Source: a virus
Taxonomy: Duplodnaviria; Caudoviricetes
DNA: 41,771 nucleotides
IMG/VR virus record: IMGVR_UViG_3300014656_000047
Coordinates: 1-41,771 of that record
Reading direction: 5' to 3' (one strand)
Below the pieces are notes generated by a model, which saw only the letters and a list, made by a program, of their open reading frames with translations, searched no databases and was not told where the DNA came from. Below, piece after piece: positions 28,234 through 36,596 of this stretch. A program made the position numbers and the translations under genes. How positions within the stretch are numbered: the first letter of the stretch is position 1; each line of letters begins with the position of its first letter.

Positions 28234-28473
28234 ATGATAGTTATAGGCAGGGTAACTGAGGAAGAAAGAGAGCAATACTATATGCTCAAAGCACAGCTTA
28301 CAACTATAAAGCAAAATCAATGTGAACTGCTGAATAGGGAAATGTCAATAGTGTACCAAATAAATAAATTCTGGCAAAGCATAGGACACAAATACAACAT
28401 AGACACCGAACATATACCCTATTCTATCAAGGAAAACGGTGATTTAACTATATGGGAGGGTAACAATGCGTAA
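28234..28473 (+). CDS. Hypothetical protein
   Basis: ORF track; SD AAGGAGG. Confidence 0.6.
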   Translation: MIVIGRVTEEEREQYYMLKAQLTTIKQNQCELLNREMSIVYQINKFWQSIGHKYNIDTEHIPYSIKENGDLTIWEGNNA

Positions 28474-29659
28474 AATATGTGTAATAACATCAGGTCGACA
28501 AGATTACGGACATTTATATTTCATTCTAAAAGATATAGAAGCAAGCAACAAACTTGAACTTGTCGTATTTGCACCTGGAAACCATCACTGTATACGAGAA
28601 ATAATGCAGGAATTCAAAACTGTTCAAATGACACCATGCATTAGGGGAATACAGGATTACGGCAATTTCTATTCTTTTGTGCTTGATGCCTTGAAAGCCT
28701 ATAATCCTGACATGGTTATGGTTTTAGGAGATAGATTTGAAACACACGCAGCAGCTACAGCAGCTTTACTGCTTAATGTGCCCATAGTCCATGCTCATGG
28801 AGGGGAAATCACAAAAGGAGCGTTTGACGATAAATTGCGTAATGGCATAACCATGATGTCTGATATTCATTTTACAGCACATGAAGAATATGCTAAAAAT
28901 GTATCTTATATGGCCCGAATTGGCGAATACAGGGATTGCATAACAAATGAATATTGCTGGAACATGAACGAAGATGGCTTTGGTTATGAAAGATTCGACA
29001 CGCAAGACGAAAAAACCAAAAAACACGTTAAAATATTCAACGTCGGTAGCCCTGGAATTGACTGGTTAACTCGTGCCAAACTAAAAACCAAAGCAGAACT
29101 ACAACAAGGCTTGTCGATTGACTTGAATCAGCCGTTTTATGTGTGCTGTTTCCATCCTGAAACAAAAAACCTTGCAAATACAGAACGGCACATCAAGGAA
29201 TTTTGTACCGCATTGGATAAAACAGGTATGCAGATACTTTTTGTCATGCCTAATTGCGATCCCTGCAACAACATAATCCGCCAAGTAGTCCAAAGCTATG
29301 ACGATGCAGGAAGATATTCAGACTGTAAACCGCATTTATGGCATTGTGTAGACAACATTGACCACCTGACATACTTATCCCTGCTTCAATGCGCCGAAAT
29401 GATAGTAGGTAACAGTTCAAGTGGAATAATAGAAGCGGCAAGCTTTAATCTACCCGCTGTCAATATAGGTACACGTCAGGAAGGGCGAATTAAACCGGAT
29501 AATGTATTCTCGTGCCTGTGTGAAACAGAAGCCATTTTGGCCGCTATAGACCGTGCTAGGGAATGGAACGCACTAGTAGGGAAATGCGGCAACCCTTATG
29601 GGGATGGAAGGTCCAGTCAAAGAATAGTAAAGGTATTGGAGGAAGTGAAGGAATTATGA
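28466..29659 (+). CDS. neuC: Hydrolysing UDP-N-acetylglucosamine 2-epimerase (NeuC/LegG family)
   Basis: RKICVITSGRQDYG, VLGDRFE, HAHGGE...D..R..IT, FHPET, GNSSSGIIEA, NIGTRQEGR, NPYGDG. Confidence 0.9.
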   Translation: MRKICVITSGRQDYGHLYFILKDIEASNKLELVVFAPGNHHCIREIMQEFKTVQMTPCIRGIQDYGNFYSFVLDALKAYNPDMVMVLGDRFETHAAATAALLLNVPIVHAHGGEITKGAFDDKLRNGITMMSDIHFTAHEEYAKNVSYMARIGEYRDCITNEYCWNMNEDGFGYERFDTQDEKTKKHVKIFNVGSPGIDWLTRAKLKTKAELQQGLSIDLNQPFYVCCFHPETKNLANTERHIKEFCTALDKTGMQILFVMPNCDPCNNIIRQVVQSYDDAGRYSDCKPHLWHCVDNIDHLTYLSLLQCAEMIVGNSSSGIIEAASFNLPAVNIGTRQEGRIKPDNVFSCLCETEAILAAIDRAREWNALVGKCGNPYGDGRSSQRIVKVLEEVKEL

Positions 29660-30351
29660 ACACAGCAATTTTTTTAACAACCCGCTATAGTAGCACAAGA
29701 CTACCCGGGAAATCGCTACTTAAAATAAACAGTCAAACAGTAACAGATATACTAATAGGCAGGCTAAAGAAAACAGGCTTGCCTATAATTATTTGTTGTC
29801 CTGATACAATAGACGATGTACTTCACATGCAGCCTATTGCCGAAAGAAACGCAGTAGGCTTTTATGCCGGTGAGCCAACTAATATAATAAAACGGCATTA
29901 TGATTGTGCTATAGAAAACAATGTTAATACTATCATAAACGTGGATGGTGACGATATACTTGCCTGTCCAGAAGTCATAAACGCAGTAAATTACGAATTA
30001 TCATCGCACCAACGCGCCAATGTAGTTAAGACAGTTGGTTTGCCTTTAGGTCTTAATATATTAGGCTACAGGGCAAAGATACTCAAAGACATTGACTATA
30101 ATTCAGACACCAATTGGGGAGCACAAATCAAAAATACCTATACCTCAATGTTGCGGTTTGACTATAACACGCCTTACAGATTAACACTAGATTACGAAAA
30201 TGATCTTAGTGTAATAGAGGACGTCTTAACCAACTGCAAGCGTAATATTTTAGTAGGCGGTATATGCAATTACCTTAGAAAACATACGCATATAGCACAA
30301 TTAAATATAGGAAGGAACAAGGAATATTGGGAAAGGATAGGTACCGCATGA
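29656..30351 (+). CDS. Acylneuraminate/Kdo cytidylyltransferase family (SpsF/PseF/KdsB-like)
   Basis: R..STRLPGKSL N-terminal motif, VDGDD, RLTLDY..DL; ATGA coupling to neuC. Confidence 0.85.
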   Translation: MNTAIFLTTRYSSTRLPGKSLLKINSQTVTDILIGRLKKTGLPIIICCPDTIDDVLHMQPIAERNAVGFYAGEPTNIIKRHYDCAIENNVNTIINVDGDDILACPEVINAVNYELSSHQRANVVKTVGLPLGLNILGYRAKILKDIDYNSDTNWGAQIKNTYTSMLRFDYNTPYRLTLDYENDLSVIEDVLTNCKRNILVGGICNYLRKHTHIAQLNIGRNKEYWERIGTA

Positions 30352-30839
30352 TAGAAGTATACAAGAATCTATACGTAGGCAATGAACAAGACTACGAACA
30401 GACAGTCAAGGGTAGTGAAGAATGGGCTGTCTTGCATGTATGCAAAGAACCGTATCACAGACAGATGCTAGGGTATACAAGCCGTGGTGCACCCAAAGAC
30501 CATAAAGAGTATTTGTTTGCCGAAAGAGACAATAGACTTGCTCTCAACATTGTAGATGCAGATAATCCGGAATATTTTGGTCCGGGTATGATTAATTACG
30601 CAATGTGCTTTATCCTTAACAAGCTTGAAAAGAACCTAAAAGTACTTGTACATTGCAACCAAGGGGAAAGCCGCAGCCCATCTATAGCAATGCTGTATAT
30701 GGCTATATGCGGATACATACCCAACGATACAATAGAAGATGCAGAAAAAGCATTTATGCAATTGTATCCAAAATATAACCCTAAACAGGGTATAAGAGGA
30801 CACATGGAAAAGTTTTGGGATGAATATATAGGGAGGTAA
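30348..30839 (+). CDS. Dual-specificity (CX5R) phosphatase family protein
   Basis: VLVHCNQGESRS P-loop; ATGA coupling. Confidence 0.85.
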   Translation: MIEVYKNLYVGNEQDYEQTVKGSEEWAVLHVCKEPYHRQMLGYTSRGAPKDHKEYLFAERDNRLALNIVDADNPEYFGPGMINYAMCFILNKLEKNLKVLVHCNQGESRSPSIAMLYMAICGYIPNDTIEDAEKAFMQLYPKYNPKQGIRGHMEKFWDEYIGR

Positions 30840-30854
30840 ATATGAAATATTATA

Positions 30855-30977
30855 CAATGGTCGGTGGAATTGGGAATAAATTACGACACTTTAAAGGCAA
30901 GATTAGGCAAAAATTGGTCTATTGAAAAAGCATTTACTGAACCAATAAGTATGTTAAGGAGGAAGAAAACAGTATGA
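30855..30977 (+). pseudogene. C-terminal relic of a deleted HNH homing endonuclease
   Basis: QWSVELGINYDTLKARLGKNWSIEKAFTEP resembles the tail of 21067..21714; out of frame with the upstream SD-ATG at 30842. Confidence 0.6.
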
Positions 30978-32005
30978 AGTACTTAATAATTTCTAGAGGC
31001 TCGATGTCTAAACGCCGCCAACGTTGTTTAAAGACACTAGGCTATAACGACTATATAACATGGGATATAACCGATAAAGAACCAATACAAGAACTTGTTG
31101 AACAATACAAACCCAACACAATGATTATATCAAGTCCACCTTTGACTAAGCAACCTTATATTACACTTGCAAATAATTTTAGCCTAATTCCATTTTGCGA
31201 AGCCGACATACAAACATATTCAGGCGACTATTATCCGAGTAGCACTATGCGCTTTCACCCTGCTATAACTAAAATAAAAGAACTGATTGACAATGGTACA
31301 CTAGGCAACGTCTATACATTCACACATCATTGTGGAAATCACATTGCAGACTGGCACCCTGGGGCAGACATGAAAACTTATTACGCAGCACAAAAGGAAA
31401 CGGGTGGCTGTAAGGAAATTTTTCCTTTTGAATTATCATGGCTATCATGGTTATTCGGTGAGCCTAAAAATGCCGTAGGAATGATAAACAAGACATTGAA
31501 TGATAAAGATATTACCGCAGACGATGTTTATACAACTGCTTGTAAGCTTGGCAATATAACTGGTACTATCCTAATAGACATAGTATCTCGTCCCGCCATT
31601 CGCGAACTGCGTATTGTAGGCGAGAAAGGTATTATTGAATGGAATTGGAACGAAGATTTTGTTTATCATAAGTTTGCAGACGGGTTAAATCAATATCAAC
31701 ATTATGTGCCAAAAGGGCAAGCTGCAGAGGGATATCATTCAGCGATTTGCGAGCAAATGTACATTGACGAAATTAAGGCATTTATAAATAGCATAACGCC
31801 GACTTGTGGAAATTGTGAATACATTAATCCAAAAGAAAAACAGCCCCACACGACAAGTCATTGTTGCACAAAATACAACAAGCAATTATTACACAGGGGC
31901 TATCACCCTGATTTATGCAAGCTTGATGAATGTAAATCTTATTTTTACACTAAGGCAGAGGAAGAACATGTAATAAAAATGTTAAGGAGAGTGGAGGGAA
32001 AATGA
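30974..32005 (+). CDS. Gfo/Idh/MocA-family oxidoreductase
   Basis: Degenerate Rossmann start (IISRGSMSKRR), FCEA, MRFHPAI..IKELI..G.LG, DWHP...YYAA...GG; extra Cys-rich C-terminal insert. Confidence 0.8.
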   Translation: MKYLIISRGSMSKRRQRCLKTLGYNDYITWDITDKEPIQELVEQYKPNTMIISSPPLTKQPYITLANNFSLIPFCEADIQTYSGDYYPSSTMRFHPAITKIKELIDNGTLGNVYTFTHHCGNHIADWHPGADMKTYYAAQKETGGCKEIFPFELSWLSWLFGEPKNAVGMINKTLNDKDITADDVYTTACKLGNITGTILIDIVSRPAIRELRIVGEKGIIEWNWNEDFVYHKFADGLNQYQHYVPKGQAAEGYHSAICEQMYIDEIKAFINSITPTCGNCEYINPKEKQPHTTSHCCTKYNKQLLHRGYHPDLCKLDECKSYFYTKAEEEHVIKMLRRVEGK

Positions 32006-32542
32006 ATGTATGATAGTAAAGAGGATACTTTAAAGCATATAGACCATGTTGTTAATTACTTGGGCCGCATTTATTCACAACTGATAATAAGAGGGCAAAA
32101 ACACGACCAAACAAAGCTTTTCGAACCTGAAAAATCTGTATTCGATGAGCACACGCCAAAGCTCGCACAATCAACTTACGGAAGCGATGAATATAAGGAA
32201 CATCTAAAGGAAATGAAAGTTGCTCTTGACCATCATTACTCAGAGAACAGACATCATCCGGAACACTTCAAAAAGTATGCTTGTAACGGCTGTTTCAAAG
32301 AGTTCAAAGAAATGCCAAATACTTGCGATGTATGCGGTTATTCTCAATTTCAGGAGGAATCAGACATATCTCAAATGACACTTATTGACCTATGTGAAAT
32401 GATAGCAGATTGGAAAGCAGCAACTTTAAGACACAATAACGGAGACATAATGAAAAGTATCGAAATTAATCAAAAGAGGTTTAAGTATAGCGATGAATTG
32501 AAACAAATTTTTATAAAAACAGTAAAGGAATATTTTGAATAA
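32006..32542 (+). CDS. DUF5662-like HD-type protein
   Basis: H...V, HDQTK, HHYSENRHHPEH, EMIADWKAA. Confidence 0.7.
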   Translation: MYDSKEDTLKHIDHVVNYLGRIYSQLIIRGQKHDQTKLFEPEKSVFDEHTPKLAQSTYGSDEYKEHLKEMKVALDHHYSENRHHPEHFKKYACNGCFKEFKEMPNTCDVCGYSQFQEESDISQMTLIDLCEMIADWKAATLRHNNGDIMKSIEINQKRFKYSDELKQIFIKTVKEYFE

Positions 32543-32666
32543 ACCGATTTTAGTAAACTAAAAGGCTACTTTTTAACAGGAGGTCTTATGTACTACAATC
32601 ACATAGAATGCATACTAACCAAACAGCAGCTTAAGTAGCTGCTATTTTATTTCAAGGAGGTTTAAT

Positions 32667-33098
32667 GTGAAAAATAAAATAGAATTTAAAGTCTGTGGTC
32701 AAGGAAATAACCCCGAAGCCTATAAAGAATGTGAGGAATTTATTGAGAAGTGGAAAAAAATTCTGAGAATTCAGGACTGGGAAACAAAACTTTCGTTTAT
32801 TAGCGGAGAAGAAATTTATGAACAAATGAAAAGCTTTGATTATGTGGCTTCTTGCGACAGAGATTTAGTTAACAAAACTGCATATATAAGTGTAAATGTC
32901 GAGCATTCAAGGATAAATGAGTGTATAGAAAAAACATTGCTGCATGAACTTTTGCACATTGTAACCTATGAATGGCAAAACATAGTTGAGAATTCTATCG
33001 AAGACGAAGAATTACAAGAATATAGCCGTGTAAAAATGGAGCAGACTGTTGAAAGTTTGGCAAAATCATTTGCTTATTTTGCGGAGGTGAAAGTCTGA
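32667..33098 (+). CDS. Putative zinc metallopeptidase-like protein
   Basis: LLHELLH (HExxH); last codon and stop are supplied by the IS110 end. Confidence 0.6.
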   Translation: MKNKIEFKVCGQGNNPEAYKECEEFIEKWKKILRIQDWETKLSFISGEEIYEQMKSFDYVASCDRDLVNKTAYISVNVEHSRINECIEKTLLHELLHIVTYEWQNIVENSIEDEELQEYSRVKMEQTVESLAKSFAYFAEVKV

Positions 33099-33198
33099 AA
33101 CCATAGTCGTGACTGGCAGAAACTAAAAAAAGGCACCACAAATAAAGCTCCAAATTGGCGCTCTTTGAAAAATTAATAGCTACAGTATTAAACCGATA

Positions 33199-34437
33199 TC
33201 AATCCTTAACTACTGAGAAACCGTGGCTTTTGGCATAAAAAACAGCCTGTTGTACTGTGATTACTTTTGAAGTTGGAATAGTTTCTGTTTTTTTATAAAG
33301 CTCAGCATTGTAAGGTTCTCTTTTCTTAAGGATGTGATATATAGCAGTAAGCATCATTCGTGCAATGGCAATGACTGCACGTTTGTGACCACGTCGCTTC
33401 TTGATAGACAAATAGCGACCACGGATTTCAGGGTGTTTTTCACTTATTACAACGGCATTAGCACATTGTACTAAAAGTGGTTTAATATAAACACCAGCAC
33501 GAGAAATGCGAACAGATTTTTTCTTGCCAGCACTCTCGTCATTTTGTGGAGTTAAGCCAGCCCACGAGCATAAGTGTTTAGCTGTAGGAAACACAGACAT
33601 ATCAGCACCTATTTCTGAAATTATTGAGATAGCAGAGAAAGGATTTTTGATACCTGGTACAGTTGACACTAGACTACATTCTTGGGCATATAACTCCGAA
33701 AGCGAAAGAATCAAGGATTCGAGATTGAGCTTACACTTTTCCAGTTCGTCATAATGCTGAAGTATGATATTCATTTTTTGCAATTGCTCAGGAGTGAAGT
33801 TCCCGTCAATAGCAAGTCGTATATCATCAACCTTATTAAGCATAGAAGCGTGAAGAAAAGGAACAAAATCGAAATCCTTATCATTAGGATTTTCAAGTAA
33901 GTGATCAATGATTTTCATTGAACTCTTACCGAAAGTATCAGATACCACATTTGAAAGCTGTATATTTGATACAGTAAGACAATTTTGAAGCCTATTCTTT
34001 TCGCTTGATTTAAAATTTGTTAGTTTGAAGCGGTAACGCATCAAATCCCGCAATTGACGAATTGCAAGCGGAGGCATAAAGCTTCCGGCAACAAGGTCGT
34101 GCTTAAAGAGATCAGCAATCCATTTAGCATCCTTCTTGTCAGTTTTCTTGCCACGGATAGCCTTGACGTACTTTGGGTGAGCCAGTGTTATTTTGCAAGT
34201 TACTTCTAGCACATTAAACACAGGTATCCAGTACTTGCCAGTGGATTCCATACAAATTTCGGTGCAGGAATTGGAGTAAAGCCACTCCGACAGCTTTCTC
34301 AAACCACTTGTAAAGGTTGAAAAGCGACTGGACTTGTAAGATGTAATACCCTTGTTGTCCGTTGCGGCAATACAAGCAACAATAAACTTTTTGTGGACAT
34401 CGATTCCACAGCAGATGGGGTAAACGATTTTTAACAT
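33199..34437 (-). CDS. IS110-family transposase/recombinase
   Basis: GIDVHK, MESTGKYW, KTDKKDA, SWAGLTP...SAGK. Confidence 0.95.
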   Translation of the reverse strand: MLKIVYPICCGIDVHKKFIVACIAATDNKGITSYKSSRFSTFTSGLRKLSEWLYSNSCTEICMESTGKYWIPVFNVLEVTCKITLAHPKYVKAIRGKKTDKKDAKWIADLFKHDLVAGSFMPPLAIRQLRDLMRYRFKLTNFKSSEKNRLQNCLTVSNIQLSNVVSDTFGKSSMKIIDHLLENPNDKDFDFVPFLHASMLNKVDDIRLAIDGNFTPEQLQKMNIILQHYDELEKCKLNLESLILSLSELYAQECSLVSTVPGIKNPFSAISIISEIGADMSVFPTAKHLCSWAGLTPQNDESAGKKKSVRISRAGVYIKPLLVQCANAVVISEKHPEIRGRYLSIKKRRGHKRAVIAIARMMLTAIYHILKKREPYNAELYKKTETIPTSKVITVQQAVFYAKSHGFSVVKD

Positions 34438-34479
34438 AGATATCCCTTCTTAAATAGATTATAGGGATTACAGACATTA

Positions 34480-34730
34480 ACTGATTGTTCAGCAATAAAC
34501 GAGTATTGTTTATACAAAGATAAGTCTTCGTGATCTATGTCACACTTATTTGTGCTTGAAAGAACAATCTACACATATAAACATGCGGTCAACTCCCAAA
34601 GGAGCAGCACACTCACCTCCCCGTGATTTGTAGTTGCCTGCAATCTCTATACTATAGTTGTAAAATAAAATAAGCTCAAAGGCAACGGTTTCATTCCGTT
34701 TTGTGCCTTGAGCGAAGCGAAAGGAATGGT
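34480..34730 (-). ncRNA. Putative IS110 bridge RNA
   Basis: Non-coding end with stems; internal-loop segments GGAGGUGA (34613-34620) and CAUGUUU (34579-34585) match the two target flanks; AGACUUAU (34520-34527) matches the predicted circle junction. Boundaries approximate. Confidence 0.7.
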
Positions 34731-34737
34731 TATAAAC

Positions 34738-36024
34738 ATGAAACACTTTGCAACCTACAGCCGTTCAAATGATTGTTTCCCTGCGAATTGCCCGTCAGTA
34801 TTTACTAGTGCAAAAGACTGTCACGTCACAGCACAAGACGGACGAGAGTTCATTGACTGGGGAATGAGCCTGAGGTCTGTTATTCTTGGATATTGCAATG
34901 AAAATGTTGACAATGCGGTAATAAAAGCCATACAAAAAGGTATAAGCTTTACACGGTCCAATCCATACGAGGAAGAACTGCGGGAGTTAATACGTTCAAT
35001 TATACCGTGCGCTGAAGAGGTCAAGTTTGGCAAAAATGGCTCAGATGCTACAAGCGCAGCAATAAAACTAGCAAGGGCATTTACGGGCAGGGATATCGTG
35101 CTAATAGCCGAGGAAAACCCATTCTATAGTCAGCACGATTGGTTTATTGGCACAACGTCATTTAATGATGGTATACCTTACTGCCGTGAGTGTAATGGAA
35201 CTATAACGAAATACAGTTACAACGACTTACTCATAAAAACTTCTGACATATGGGGAAGAGAAGATACAAAAGTAACACGGCTTGAATGGCTATGTGAAGC
35301 ATTTAGACCAGCTGCAATTATTCTTGATGCTTCAACTGTAGACATAACCAAAGAAAAACTACAGTATATCCGTGACCTCTGTACAAAGCATGGGGTAATT
35401 ATGATACTCGACGAGGTAATTTCCGGATTTCGTTACGGCATAAGCGGTGTACAAGGCTTATACGGTGTTACGCCTGACCTTGCAACATTCGGTAAGGCTA
35501 TGGCAAATGGCTATTCAATCTCTGCACTGTGCGGCAAGCGTGACCTTATGCAGTTGGGAGATAGGGAACATGGCAATACATTTCTCATGAGCGGAACTTA
35601 TTTTTCCAACACACCGGATTTGGCTGCAGGCATAGCAACTATACACGAAATTCGACAAAAAGGCGTAATAGACCACATAAATAATATTGGCTCAAACCTA
35701 TGCGAAGGCCTACAACAAGCTATTGACCTTCATAATATGGGCGAACACGTTAAATTTTCTCCTGCGTCAAGACATTGCAATCCACAATTGACGTTTTCAA
35801 GTATGGAATTAAAGACGTTGTGGGATCAATGTATGATTGAACGCGGTATTCTTATACCATATATAAGCCCTTCCTACAGCCATACAATAAACGAAGTTGA
35901 GCAAACTTTAGAAGCCGCCGATTATGCCCTAAGCGTGTGTAGGAAAGCTATAAATGAAAGAAACGTCAAAGAACTGCTATTGAACGGACATTGCGAACGC
36001 TCGGTATTCCGTAAAAAGGGGTGA
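34738..36024 (+). CDS. Class-III PLP aminotransferase (glutamate-1-semialdehyde aminomutase-like, sugar-pathway type)
   Basis: DGREFIDWGM, KNGSDATSAAIKLARA, LDEVISGFR, PDLATFGKAMANG; true start ATG34738. Confidence 0.88.
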   Translation: MKHFATYSRSNDCFPANCPSVFTSAKDCHVTAQDGREFIDWGMSLRSVILGYCNENVDNAVIKAIQKGISFTRSNPYEEELRELIRSIIPCAEEVKFGKNGSDATSAAIKLARAFTGRDIVLIAEENPFYSQHDWFIGTTSFNDGIPYCRECNGTITKYSYNDLLIKTSDIWGREDTKVTRLEWLCEAFRPAAIILDASTVDITKEKLQYIRDLCTKHGVIMILDEVISGFRYGISGVQGLYGVTPDLATFGKAMANGYSISALCGKRDLMQLGDREHGNTFLMSGTYFSNTPDLAAGIATIHEIRQKGVIDHINNIGSNLCEGLQQAIDLHNMGEHVKFSPASRHCNPQLTFSSMELKTLWDQCMIERGILIPYISPSYSHTINEVEQTLEAADYALSVCRKAINERNVKELLLNGHCERSVFRKKG

Positions 36025-36483: not shown

Positions 36484-36596
36484 TACCAAAAATACTGTCA
36501 CTAAAATAAGGAGGCTATTTGCTCGAAACACGCTACTAAATGTTACATTTTGCATGGTACAATGGTATTGTACATTTTTACTTCCTTTTCGTAGTC

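Follow-up and report, generated by a model that had tools for sequence, protein, structure and literature searches.

A predicted bridge RNA encoded in the upstream end of an insertion sequence very probably directs that element, a member of the IS110 family, to translation-initiation sites of the form Shine–Dalgarno (SD)–AA–NN–ATG, with its transposase antisense to the host gene. The element lies in a viral genome fragment of 41,771 nucleotides (nt) (Duplodnaviria; Caudoviricetes; IMG/VR record IMGVR_UViG_3300014656_000047, positions 1 to 41,771; hereafter the window), where it has inserted between GGAGGTGA and the ACATG of a phage class III aminotransferase gene. RNA guidance is established for the IS110 family in the accessible parts of two reports (PMC11208160, PMC11187229). 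For the present clade, sequence comparison establishes the site consensus, the orientation, a 2-nt core that is present once in an empty allele, the agreement of the right target guide and the donor guide with their DNA, and covarying RNA helices. The element body comprises the 1641 bp from 33093 to 34733, flanked on both sides by AA, in place of the span 33081-34745 assigned by a first-pass annotation of the sequence; its transposase is on the minus strand, and no terminal inverted repeats were seen when the ends were compared by eye. Its parts and target are as follows.

33083-33090, plus strand: left target, the host SD GGAGGTGA (sequence).
33091-33092, plus strand: core AA, copy 1 (register from the empty allele L119).
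33093-33198, minus strand: short end, 106 bp, 3′ of the transposase; GTCTG at 33093-33097 is one donor half, and TGA is at 33096-33098.
33199-34437, minus strand: IS110 DEDD transposase, 412 amino acids (aa), PF01548 and PF02371, with D13, E64, D100, D103 and S302.
34438-34733, minus strand: long non-coding end, 296 bp, 5′ of the transposase (end comparison).
34734-34735, plus strand: core AA, copy 2 (sequence and site comparison).
34736-34740, plus strand: right target ACATG, including the host start codon (sequence and site comparison).

The catalytic residues D13, E64, D100, D103 and S302 align with those of IS621, and the motifs are present in 63-68 of 68 relatives.

To define the target, relatives were collected by scanning: genomes contributed the best 80 of 344 loci, viruses 11 and a set of five genomes another 23; these relatives are 46-88% identical and nearly all from Bacillota. 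Together with the window these made 115 loci, from which 68 distinct sites with both ends and 30-nt flanks were retained and 47 loci were dropped as duplicates, as truncated or for want of a recognised end. Metagenome loci (the best 80 of at least 522) served as a hold-out set of 51 sites, after exclusion of the window's own contig (L149, the only identical copy among those 80), 21 loci in which no end or guide could be recognised, 3 whose flanks were short and 4 duplicates. The consensus of the 68 sites is a purine-rich SD, AA, two variable bases and ATG. The ATG stands at +3, that is, 2 nt past the core, in 65 of 68 sites (L091 and L108 join them once their register is corrected by one base, and L104 narrowly misses) and in 49 of 51 hold-out sites, the remaining two being one-base shifts; an SD accompanies 45 of those 49. 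At all ATG sites of the main set, the transposase is antisense to the host gene. A target consensus built from other copies, a check named in advance, therefore came out as SD–AA–NN–ATG, and the earlier proposal of insertion into translation-initiation regions held in 68 plus 51 independent sites.

The targeted ATGs behave as gene starts. An open reading frame (ORF) of at least 50 codons follows the ATG at 52 of 59 sites of the main set, and anti-SD pairing, scored against an assumed anti-SD motif, reaches −6 kcal/mol or better at 59 of 65. Both properties are combined at 48 of 59 sites, compared with 64 of 803 other AA-NN-ATG sequences in the flanks and 37 of 362 intergenic AA-NN-ATG sequences in 400 kb of two host genomes (p 3e-29). 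At one locus (L123), the annotated start is the ATG that adjoins the element.

The start-codon half of the target is matched by a guide in the long non-coding end. The predicted RNA and its promoter have the following parts.

34462-34646, minus strand: predicted bridge RNA of about 185 nt with presumed ends, comprising a closing stem, target loop, donor loop and extra hairpin.
34613-34620, minus strand: left target guide GGAGGUGA, which hardly varies across the family.
34577-34585, minus strand: right target guide and core CAUGUUU (34579-34585), then a handshake-like AU (34577-34578).
34545-34549, minus strand: left donor guide AUAAG, short and too invariant for covariation.
34520-34527, minus strand: right donor guide, core and handshake AGACUUAU, which covaries with the element end.
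34651-34679, minus strand: predicted internal sigma-70-type promoter TTGAGC-17-TATAGT, directly ahead of the predicted RNA.

The start-codon-side guide CATGTTT, read in the first-pass annotation, is present on the minus strand at 34579-34585, and its agreement with the sites extends to the main and hold-out sets. When the guide is written CAU-NN-UU, its two variable bases equal those of the site in 54 of 68 cases (permutation mean 13.1, maximum 26), in 43 of 54 when one site is taken per distinct non-coding end (mean 10.5, maximum 20) and in 40 of 51 hold-out cases (mean 13.8, maximum 25). These guide bases change at least 25 times on a FastTree transposase tree of 68 rows. Among independent pairs, guide and site change in the same direction by 8.1:0.1 (median p 0.008) at the fifth guide position and by 5.8:0 (p 0.03) at the sixth; the fourth is less clear (5.4:0.1, p 0.06). 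The first guide base is frequently U or A instead of C, the U cases being explained by U:G wobble. Even at the second core base the guide matches the site (7 of 8, then 4 of 4 cases), and in 68 of 73 cases the two bases that follow the guide are also those with which the long end begins.

The core register is fixed by an empty allele. The window by itself is compatible with a core of two or three A residues, but L119 consists of both flanks of an occupied relative (L083) with the 2-nt core present once, and there is no target duplication beyond it. An empty site reconstructed with a 2-nt core also restores the ATGA overlap between the ORF at 32667 and the aminotransferase gene, and the donor guide AGACUUAU fits the 2-A register only. 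On these three grounds the 2-A register assumed earlier is retained and a 3-A core is ruled out. No joint that would mark an empty allele or a circle of the window's own element was found in the contigs of 4 of 4 runs, two of which may be the source of the window, and a search for an empty allele of L086 gave the occupied contig only. The second core base is other than A at seven loci of the main set (L005, L013, L015, L025, L030, L079 and L089) and four of the hold-out (L150, L168, L171 and L177); at these, only the junction beside the ATG is changed, to the base that the target guide has, and AA persists at the opposite junction. The crossover seems to lie before or within the core on the host-sense strand.

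On the donor side, the guide equals the element end in 68 of 68 elements across five states (AGAC, AATC, AACC, AAAC and AGAT) and in 37 of 38 scored hold-out elements (of 51); because the states are separated by only five changes, independent events are few. The donor motifs proposed beforehand, ATAAGT at 34544-34549 and AGACTTAT at 34520-34527, are both on the minus strand, and the assignment of a donor guide agrees with these counts. The left motif needs trimming: the sixth base of AUAAGU is U even in elements whose end reads GAT or GGT in place of GTC, and therefore only AUAAG can be guide. Thus the right target guide and right donor guide covary with their DNA, and the left guides are too invariant to do so.

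All four motifs of the predicted RNA are where the first-pass annotation had placed them, on the strands it named. Among 20,000 base shuffles of the 296-nt non-coding end, with either strand counted, the left-target motif arose in 0.3%, the right-target motif in 6.0% and the donor motif in 2.0%; all three together arose in 0 of 20,000. Rfam gave no match to the predicted RNA at E 1. Its structure was assessed on 41 aligned ends with a hand-written model of closing stem, target-loop stem, donor-loop stems and hairpin; an automatic RNAalifold structure was set aside as it missed the target-loop stems. Under the hand-written model 93.9% of cells are paired, with double changes in 16 of 32 pairs, compared with 36-42% for slid controls; no shuffle reached this pairing, although related sequences can beat a shuffle control. 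Two points weigh on the other side. The inner target-loop stem was left unscored as the alignment is out of register there, and in the minimum-energy fold of the naked RNA (z −2.72) the guides are partly paired. The earlier placement of the guides in loops is thus supported by the covarying helices, not by the naked fold.

The RNA would probably be transcribed from within the end. The internal promoter site scores at least 9/12 in 35 of 72 ends compared with 160 of 1440 shuffles, and a −10 box lies 23-24 nt before a conserved CTAC in 38 of 72 ends. At the circle junction, the commonest promoter matches in the transposase direction score 7-8/12 and vary from element to element. The commonest antisense-direction match there is an outward TTGAGC-17-TATAAN, at 34708-34736 (plus strand) in the window, which ends on the core; transcripts begun there would start within the host ORF, and the site therefore cannot serve that gene. 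The first 60 bases of the long end (34670-34733 in the window) are conserved like the guide loops, beyond what a short donor half needs, which may reflect protein binding or a hairpin at the 5′ end of a longer RNA. One further curiosity of this region is an antisense 1.95-kb group II intron (RVT_1 and GIIM; 412-2360 of L065, also in L066 and L072) in the linker between target and donor loops, carried by 3 of 4 element copies of one genome (G003).

The SD half of the target requires more careful weighing. The GGAGGTGA motif occurs on the plus strand at 33083 and again on the minus strand at 34613-34620, the position read earlier as the SD guide. That position and the enrichment at sites both stand: GGAGG lies in the guide's register, with at least 3/5 matches, at 42 of 65 sites compared with 139 of 1748 background AA-NN-ATG sequences. 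Its role as an SD guide is inferred from that enrichment only. Sites fit the SD guide at 3.83 of 8 compared with 3.50 in 40 natural AA-NN-ATG starts (p 0.17), GGAGGUGA is almost invariant and offers no usable covariation, and SD spacing at the sites ranges over gaps of 1-5. A guide-only score predicts 46-48% ORF starts compared with 52 of 59 (88%) observed, so pairing does not explain everything. Other observations also count against guidance to gene starts as the whole account: the two variable bases mismatch between guide and site in 12-14 of 68 and 11 of 51 cases, the hold-out ATG opens at least 50 codons in just 28 of 41, and the gene at L122 is annotated to start farther downstream than the targeted ATG. 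Neither these ends nor these guides occur in the relatives at 35-40% identity (L125-L127), which therefore give no test of the SD guide.

The lack of covariation, the fit no better than at natural starts and the under-predicted ORF starts would be expected if the RNA recognised the AA-NN-ATG half alone, with the SD association owed to selective loss of other insertions or to DNA being open and transcribed where genes begin; GGAGGUGA, which is able to pair locally with UCAC, would then be a structural or protein-binding motif. We consider this unlikely. Harmless intergenic AA-NN-ATG sequences without an SD are nine times commoner than SD starts (325 compared with 37) and yet are rarely used, GGAGGUGA occupies precisely the place of the left guide in a symmetric 11 × 11 loop, and the modal SD register at the sites is that of the guide (22-25 sites at gap 3). 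As GGAGGUGA separates sites from random AA-NN-ATG sequences, does not separate them from natural starts and under-predicts ORF starts, it is best described as a loose guide aided by selection. That the protein itself encodes target choice, with the RNA matches being relics or copies of flanking DNA, is extremely improbable: on the tree, guide and site co-change many times between transposases of 95-100% identity, copies that are identical within one genome have the same guide and mostly the same two variable site bases (6 of 7 in G002, 4 of 4 in G003 and 3 of 3 in G001), and guidance by RNA is established for the family in what is accessible of PMC11208160 and PMC11187229.

Guidance by the bridge RNA would, by analogy with IS621, proceed as follows. 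The RNA of about 185 nt, probably transcribed from the internal promoter, would bind the recombinase. Within the target loop, CAU-NN-UU would pair strictly with AA-NN-ATG, and GGAGGUGA would pair loosely, with G:T wobble allowed, with the opposite strand of the SD region. The donor loop would pair with the joined element ends, and strand exchange at the core would insert the element. Mutational drift of the two free guide bases may equip each variant with a subset of gene starts of its own, and purifying selection likely removes some insertions elsewhere. A bolder idea is that the two bases are occasionally copied from the target during transposition, so that the element rewrites its own guide and the family spreads step by step over all gene starts. 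In favour are the guide changes on the 68-row tree (at least 25) and the tracking of the second core base, but identical copies at mismatched sites (L019, L056 and L096) retain their guide, and neutral drift at two unpaired positions accounts for the pattern; we regard copying as very improbable.

The element ends may also spare the neighbouring genes, which are listed here with the translation signal that the long end supplies.

32667-33098, plus strand: upstream host ORF, 143 aa, without a Pfam match.
34719-34728, plus strand: substitute SD GAAAGGA (34719-34725) and in-frame ATG (34726-34728), supplied by the long end.
34738-36024, plus strand: downstream host gene, class III aminotransferase (PF00202).

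Predicted anti-SD pairing of the substitute SD has a median of −11.5 kcal/mol compared with −10.7 kcal/mol at native sites. The short end gives a TGA in the ATGA-overlap register, and upstream ORF length is kept in 6 of 7 overlap cases; for the window, the final codons GTC TGA of the upstream ORF are element-derived and stand in for the ACA TGA of the reconstructed empty site, with length unchanged. Judging by these sequences, the substitute SD and TGA would limit damage to both neighbour genes. Against this, the substitute SD, in-frame ATG and TGA are each present in 68 of 68 elements, but these counts are circular because the same motifs served to find the ends. By eye, the SD and TGA are visible in 53-64% relatives, and the 53%-identity relatives keep both without the in-frame ATG. 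The CCUUU corresponding to the substitute SD may instead be conserved as an RNA hairpin, and RNA structure or protein binding may be what preserves the end motifs. No conserved outward promoter for the downstream gene was found, the best matches being scattered at 8-10/12. The short end also places CTG or TTG (32 and 33 of 65) exactly at the former host ATG, behind the host SD (33095-33097, plus strand, in the window); the antisense frame from that position closes after 2-38 codons. At L028 the final ~37 bases of the short end are tandemly duplicated.

Around the element are genes of sugar-modification type (epimerase, cytidylyltransferase, oxidoreductase and aminotransferase). The region 28466-36024 encodes a UDP-GlcNAc 2-epimerase, cytidylyltransferase, oxidoreductase and class III aminotransferase, plus a phosphatase-like gene and DUF5662. 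Downstream, the large ORFs at 36540 and 38740 have no Pfam match and are candidate terminase and portal genes. A viral search found no relatives of the upstream ORF. Two viral relatives of the aminotransferase likewise begin ATGAAACA after an SD, and two aminotransferase relatives (57-60%) sit behind a different upstream gene. The runs that hold most of the window's sequence are groundwater metagenomes; runs X1 and X2 contain a second variant of the flanking genes, ~93% identical (32744-33050 and 34771-34838).

These results offer a base-level RNA explanation for an old observation, that IS110 elements such as IS900 insert between ribosome-binding site and start codon. The clade is widespread in Bacillota, and its more than 100 natural guide/site pairs distinguish strict positions from those that wobble and those that are free. 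Its architecture (upstream RNA, IS1111-type guide order and AA core) is one that the IS110/IS1111 split does not predict. The element could serve as a gene-start-directed insertion tool and could be used to test whether IS ends evolve to rebuild translation signals. As to precedent, the title of an article by Doran et al. (1997) reportedly has IS900 targeting translation initiation signals.

Among characterized systems, the element resembles IS621 and ISCro4 (IS622) in its DEDD and Tnp-serine recombinase (PDB 8wt6 and 9t56; E 8e-12 and 3e-10), in a long non-coding end 5′ of the gene (296 compared with 106 bp here; accessible part of PMC11208160), and in two guide loops, a 5-nt right guide with 2-nt core and handshake, and a core present once in the empty site. 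According to the available portion of PMC13626964, the partners of the right guide in IS621 are positions 10-14, the core and a handshake dinucleotide. The same arrangement emerges here if the sites are read in the host-sense direction: CAUGU, UU and then AU, the adjoining donor bases. Unlike IS621 and ISCro4, the protein is distant, the core is AA instead of CT, the promoter is predicted inside the end instead of at the circle junction, and the target is a gene start.

The canonical IS621 order of guides, left then right, appears solely when the strand opposite to that of the transposase is read, which makes the element inverted with respect to its guides. The reversal suspected in the first-pass annotation is thereby upheld, and comparison with the accessible text of PMC11187229 gives it a place: the order is opposite to that of the IS110-group element ISEc21, in which the bottom-strand match precedes the top-strand match in the transposase direction, and the same as in IS1111-group seekRNA elements (ISEc11 and others), which have the top-strand complement in front when read in the transposase direction. 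The non-coding region, which lies downstream in the IS1111 group by the same partial account (PMC11187229), is upstream here, and sub-terminal inverted repeats of 7-17 bp of the IS1111 type are absent, the AACCAT match of the window being offset and not conserved. The three rows with the clade's MESTGKYW motif among those listed in the Durrant table, as far as it is accessible, give no ISfinder name for the clade. CazIS110-1 of Caloranaerobacter azorensis, as described in the available part of its report (10.1101/2025.10.25.684509), is likewise a Bacillota IS110 element, with a 170-nt bridge RNA. No paper linking a bridge RNA to SD/start targeting was found in a search outside which most subscription literature lay, and preprint supplements could hold the clade.

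The closest parallel in target choice is IS900 of Mycobacterium avium subsp. paratuberculosis. As set out in the accessible part of PMC8141618, its target is CATGNNNNNNTCTCCTT, genes are rarely disrupted, and its antisense hed ORF needs a host ribosome-binding site; that part holds no guide-RNA analysis of IS900 that we could find. Full-length hed, the actinomycetotal host and a length of 1451 bp set IS900 apart (same portion of PMC8141618); by eye, its row in the accessible Durrant table looks unlike this transposase. A hed-like antisense ORF was sought here and is absent, the longest antisense stop-free stretch being 87 codons in the window and at most 146 in 6 elements examined. The likenesses, on the same partial source (PMC8141618), are membership of the IS110 family, insertion at translation-initiation signals, a transposase antisense to the host ribosome-binding site, and a target CATGNNNNNNTCTCCTT with the geometry of CATG-TTTTCA-CCTCC here, CATG-N6-(T/C)CTCC being seen in the transposase orientation. 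The habit itself is thus already known from mycobacterial IS900, and the element is a variant of the IS110 bridge-RNA elements.

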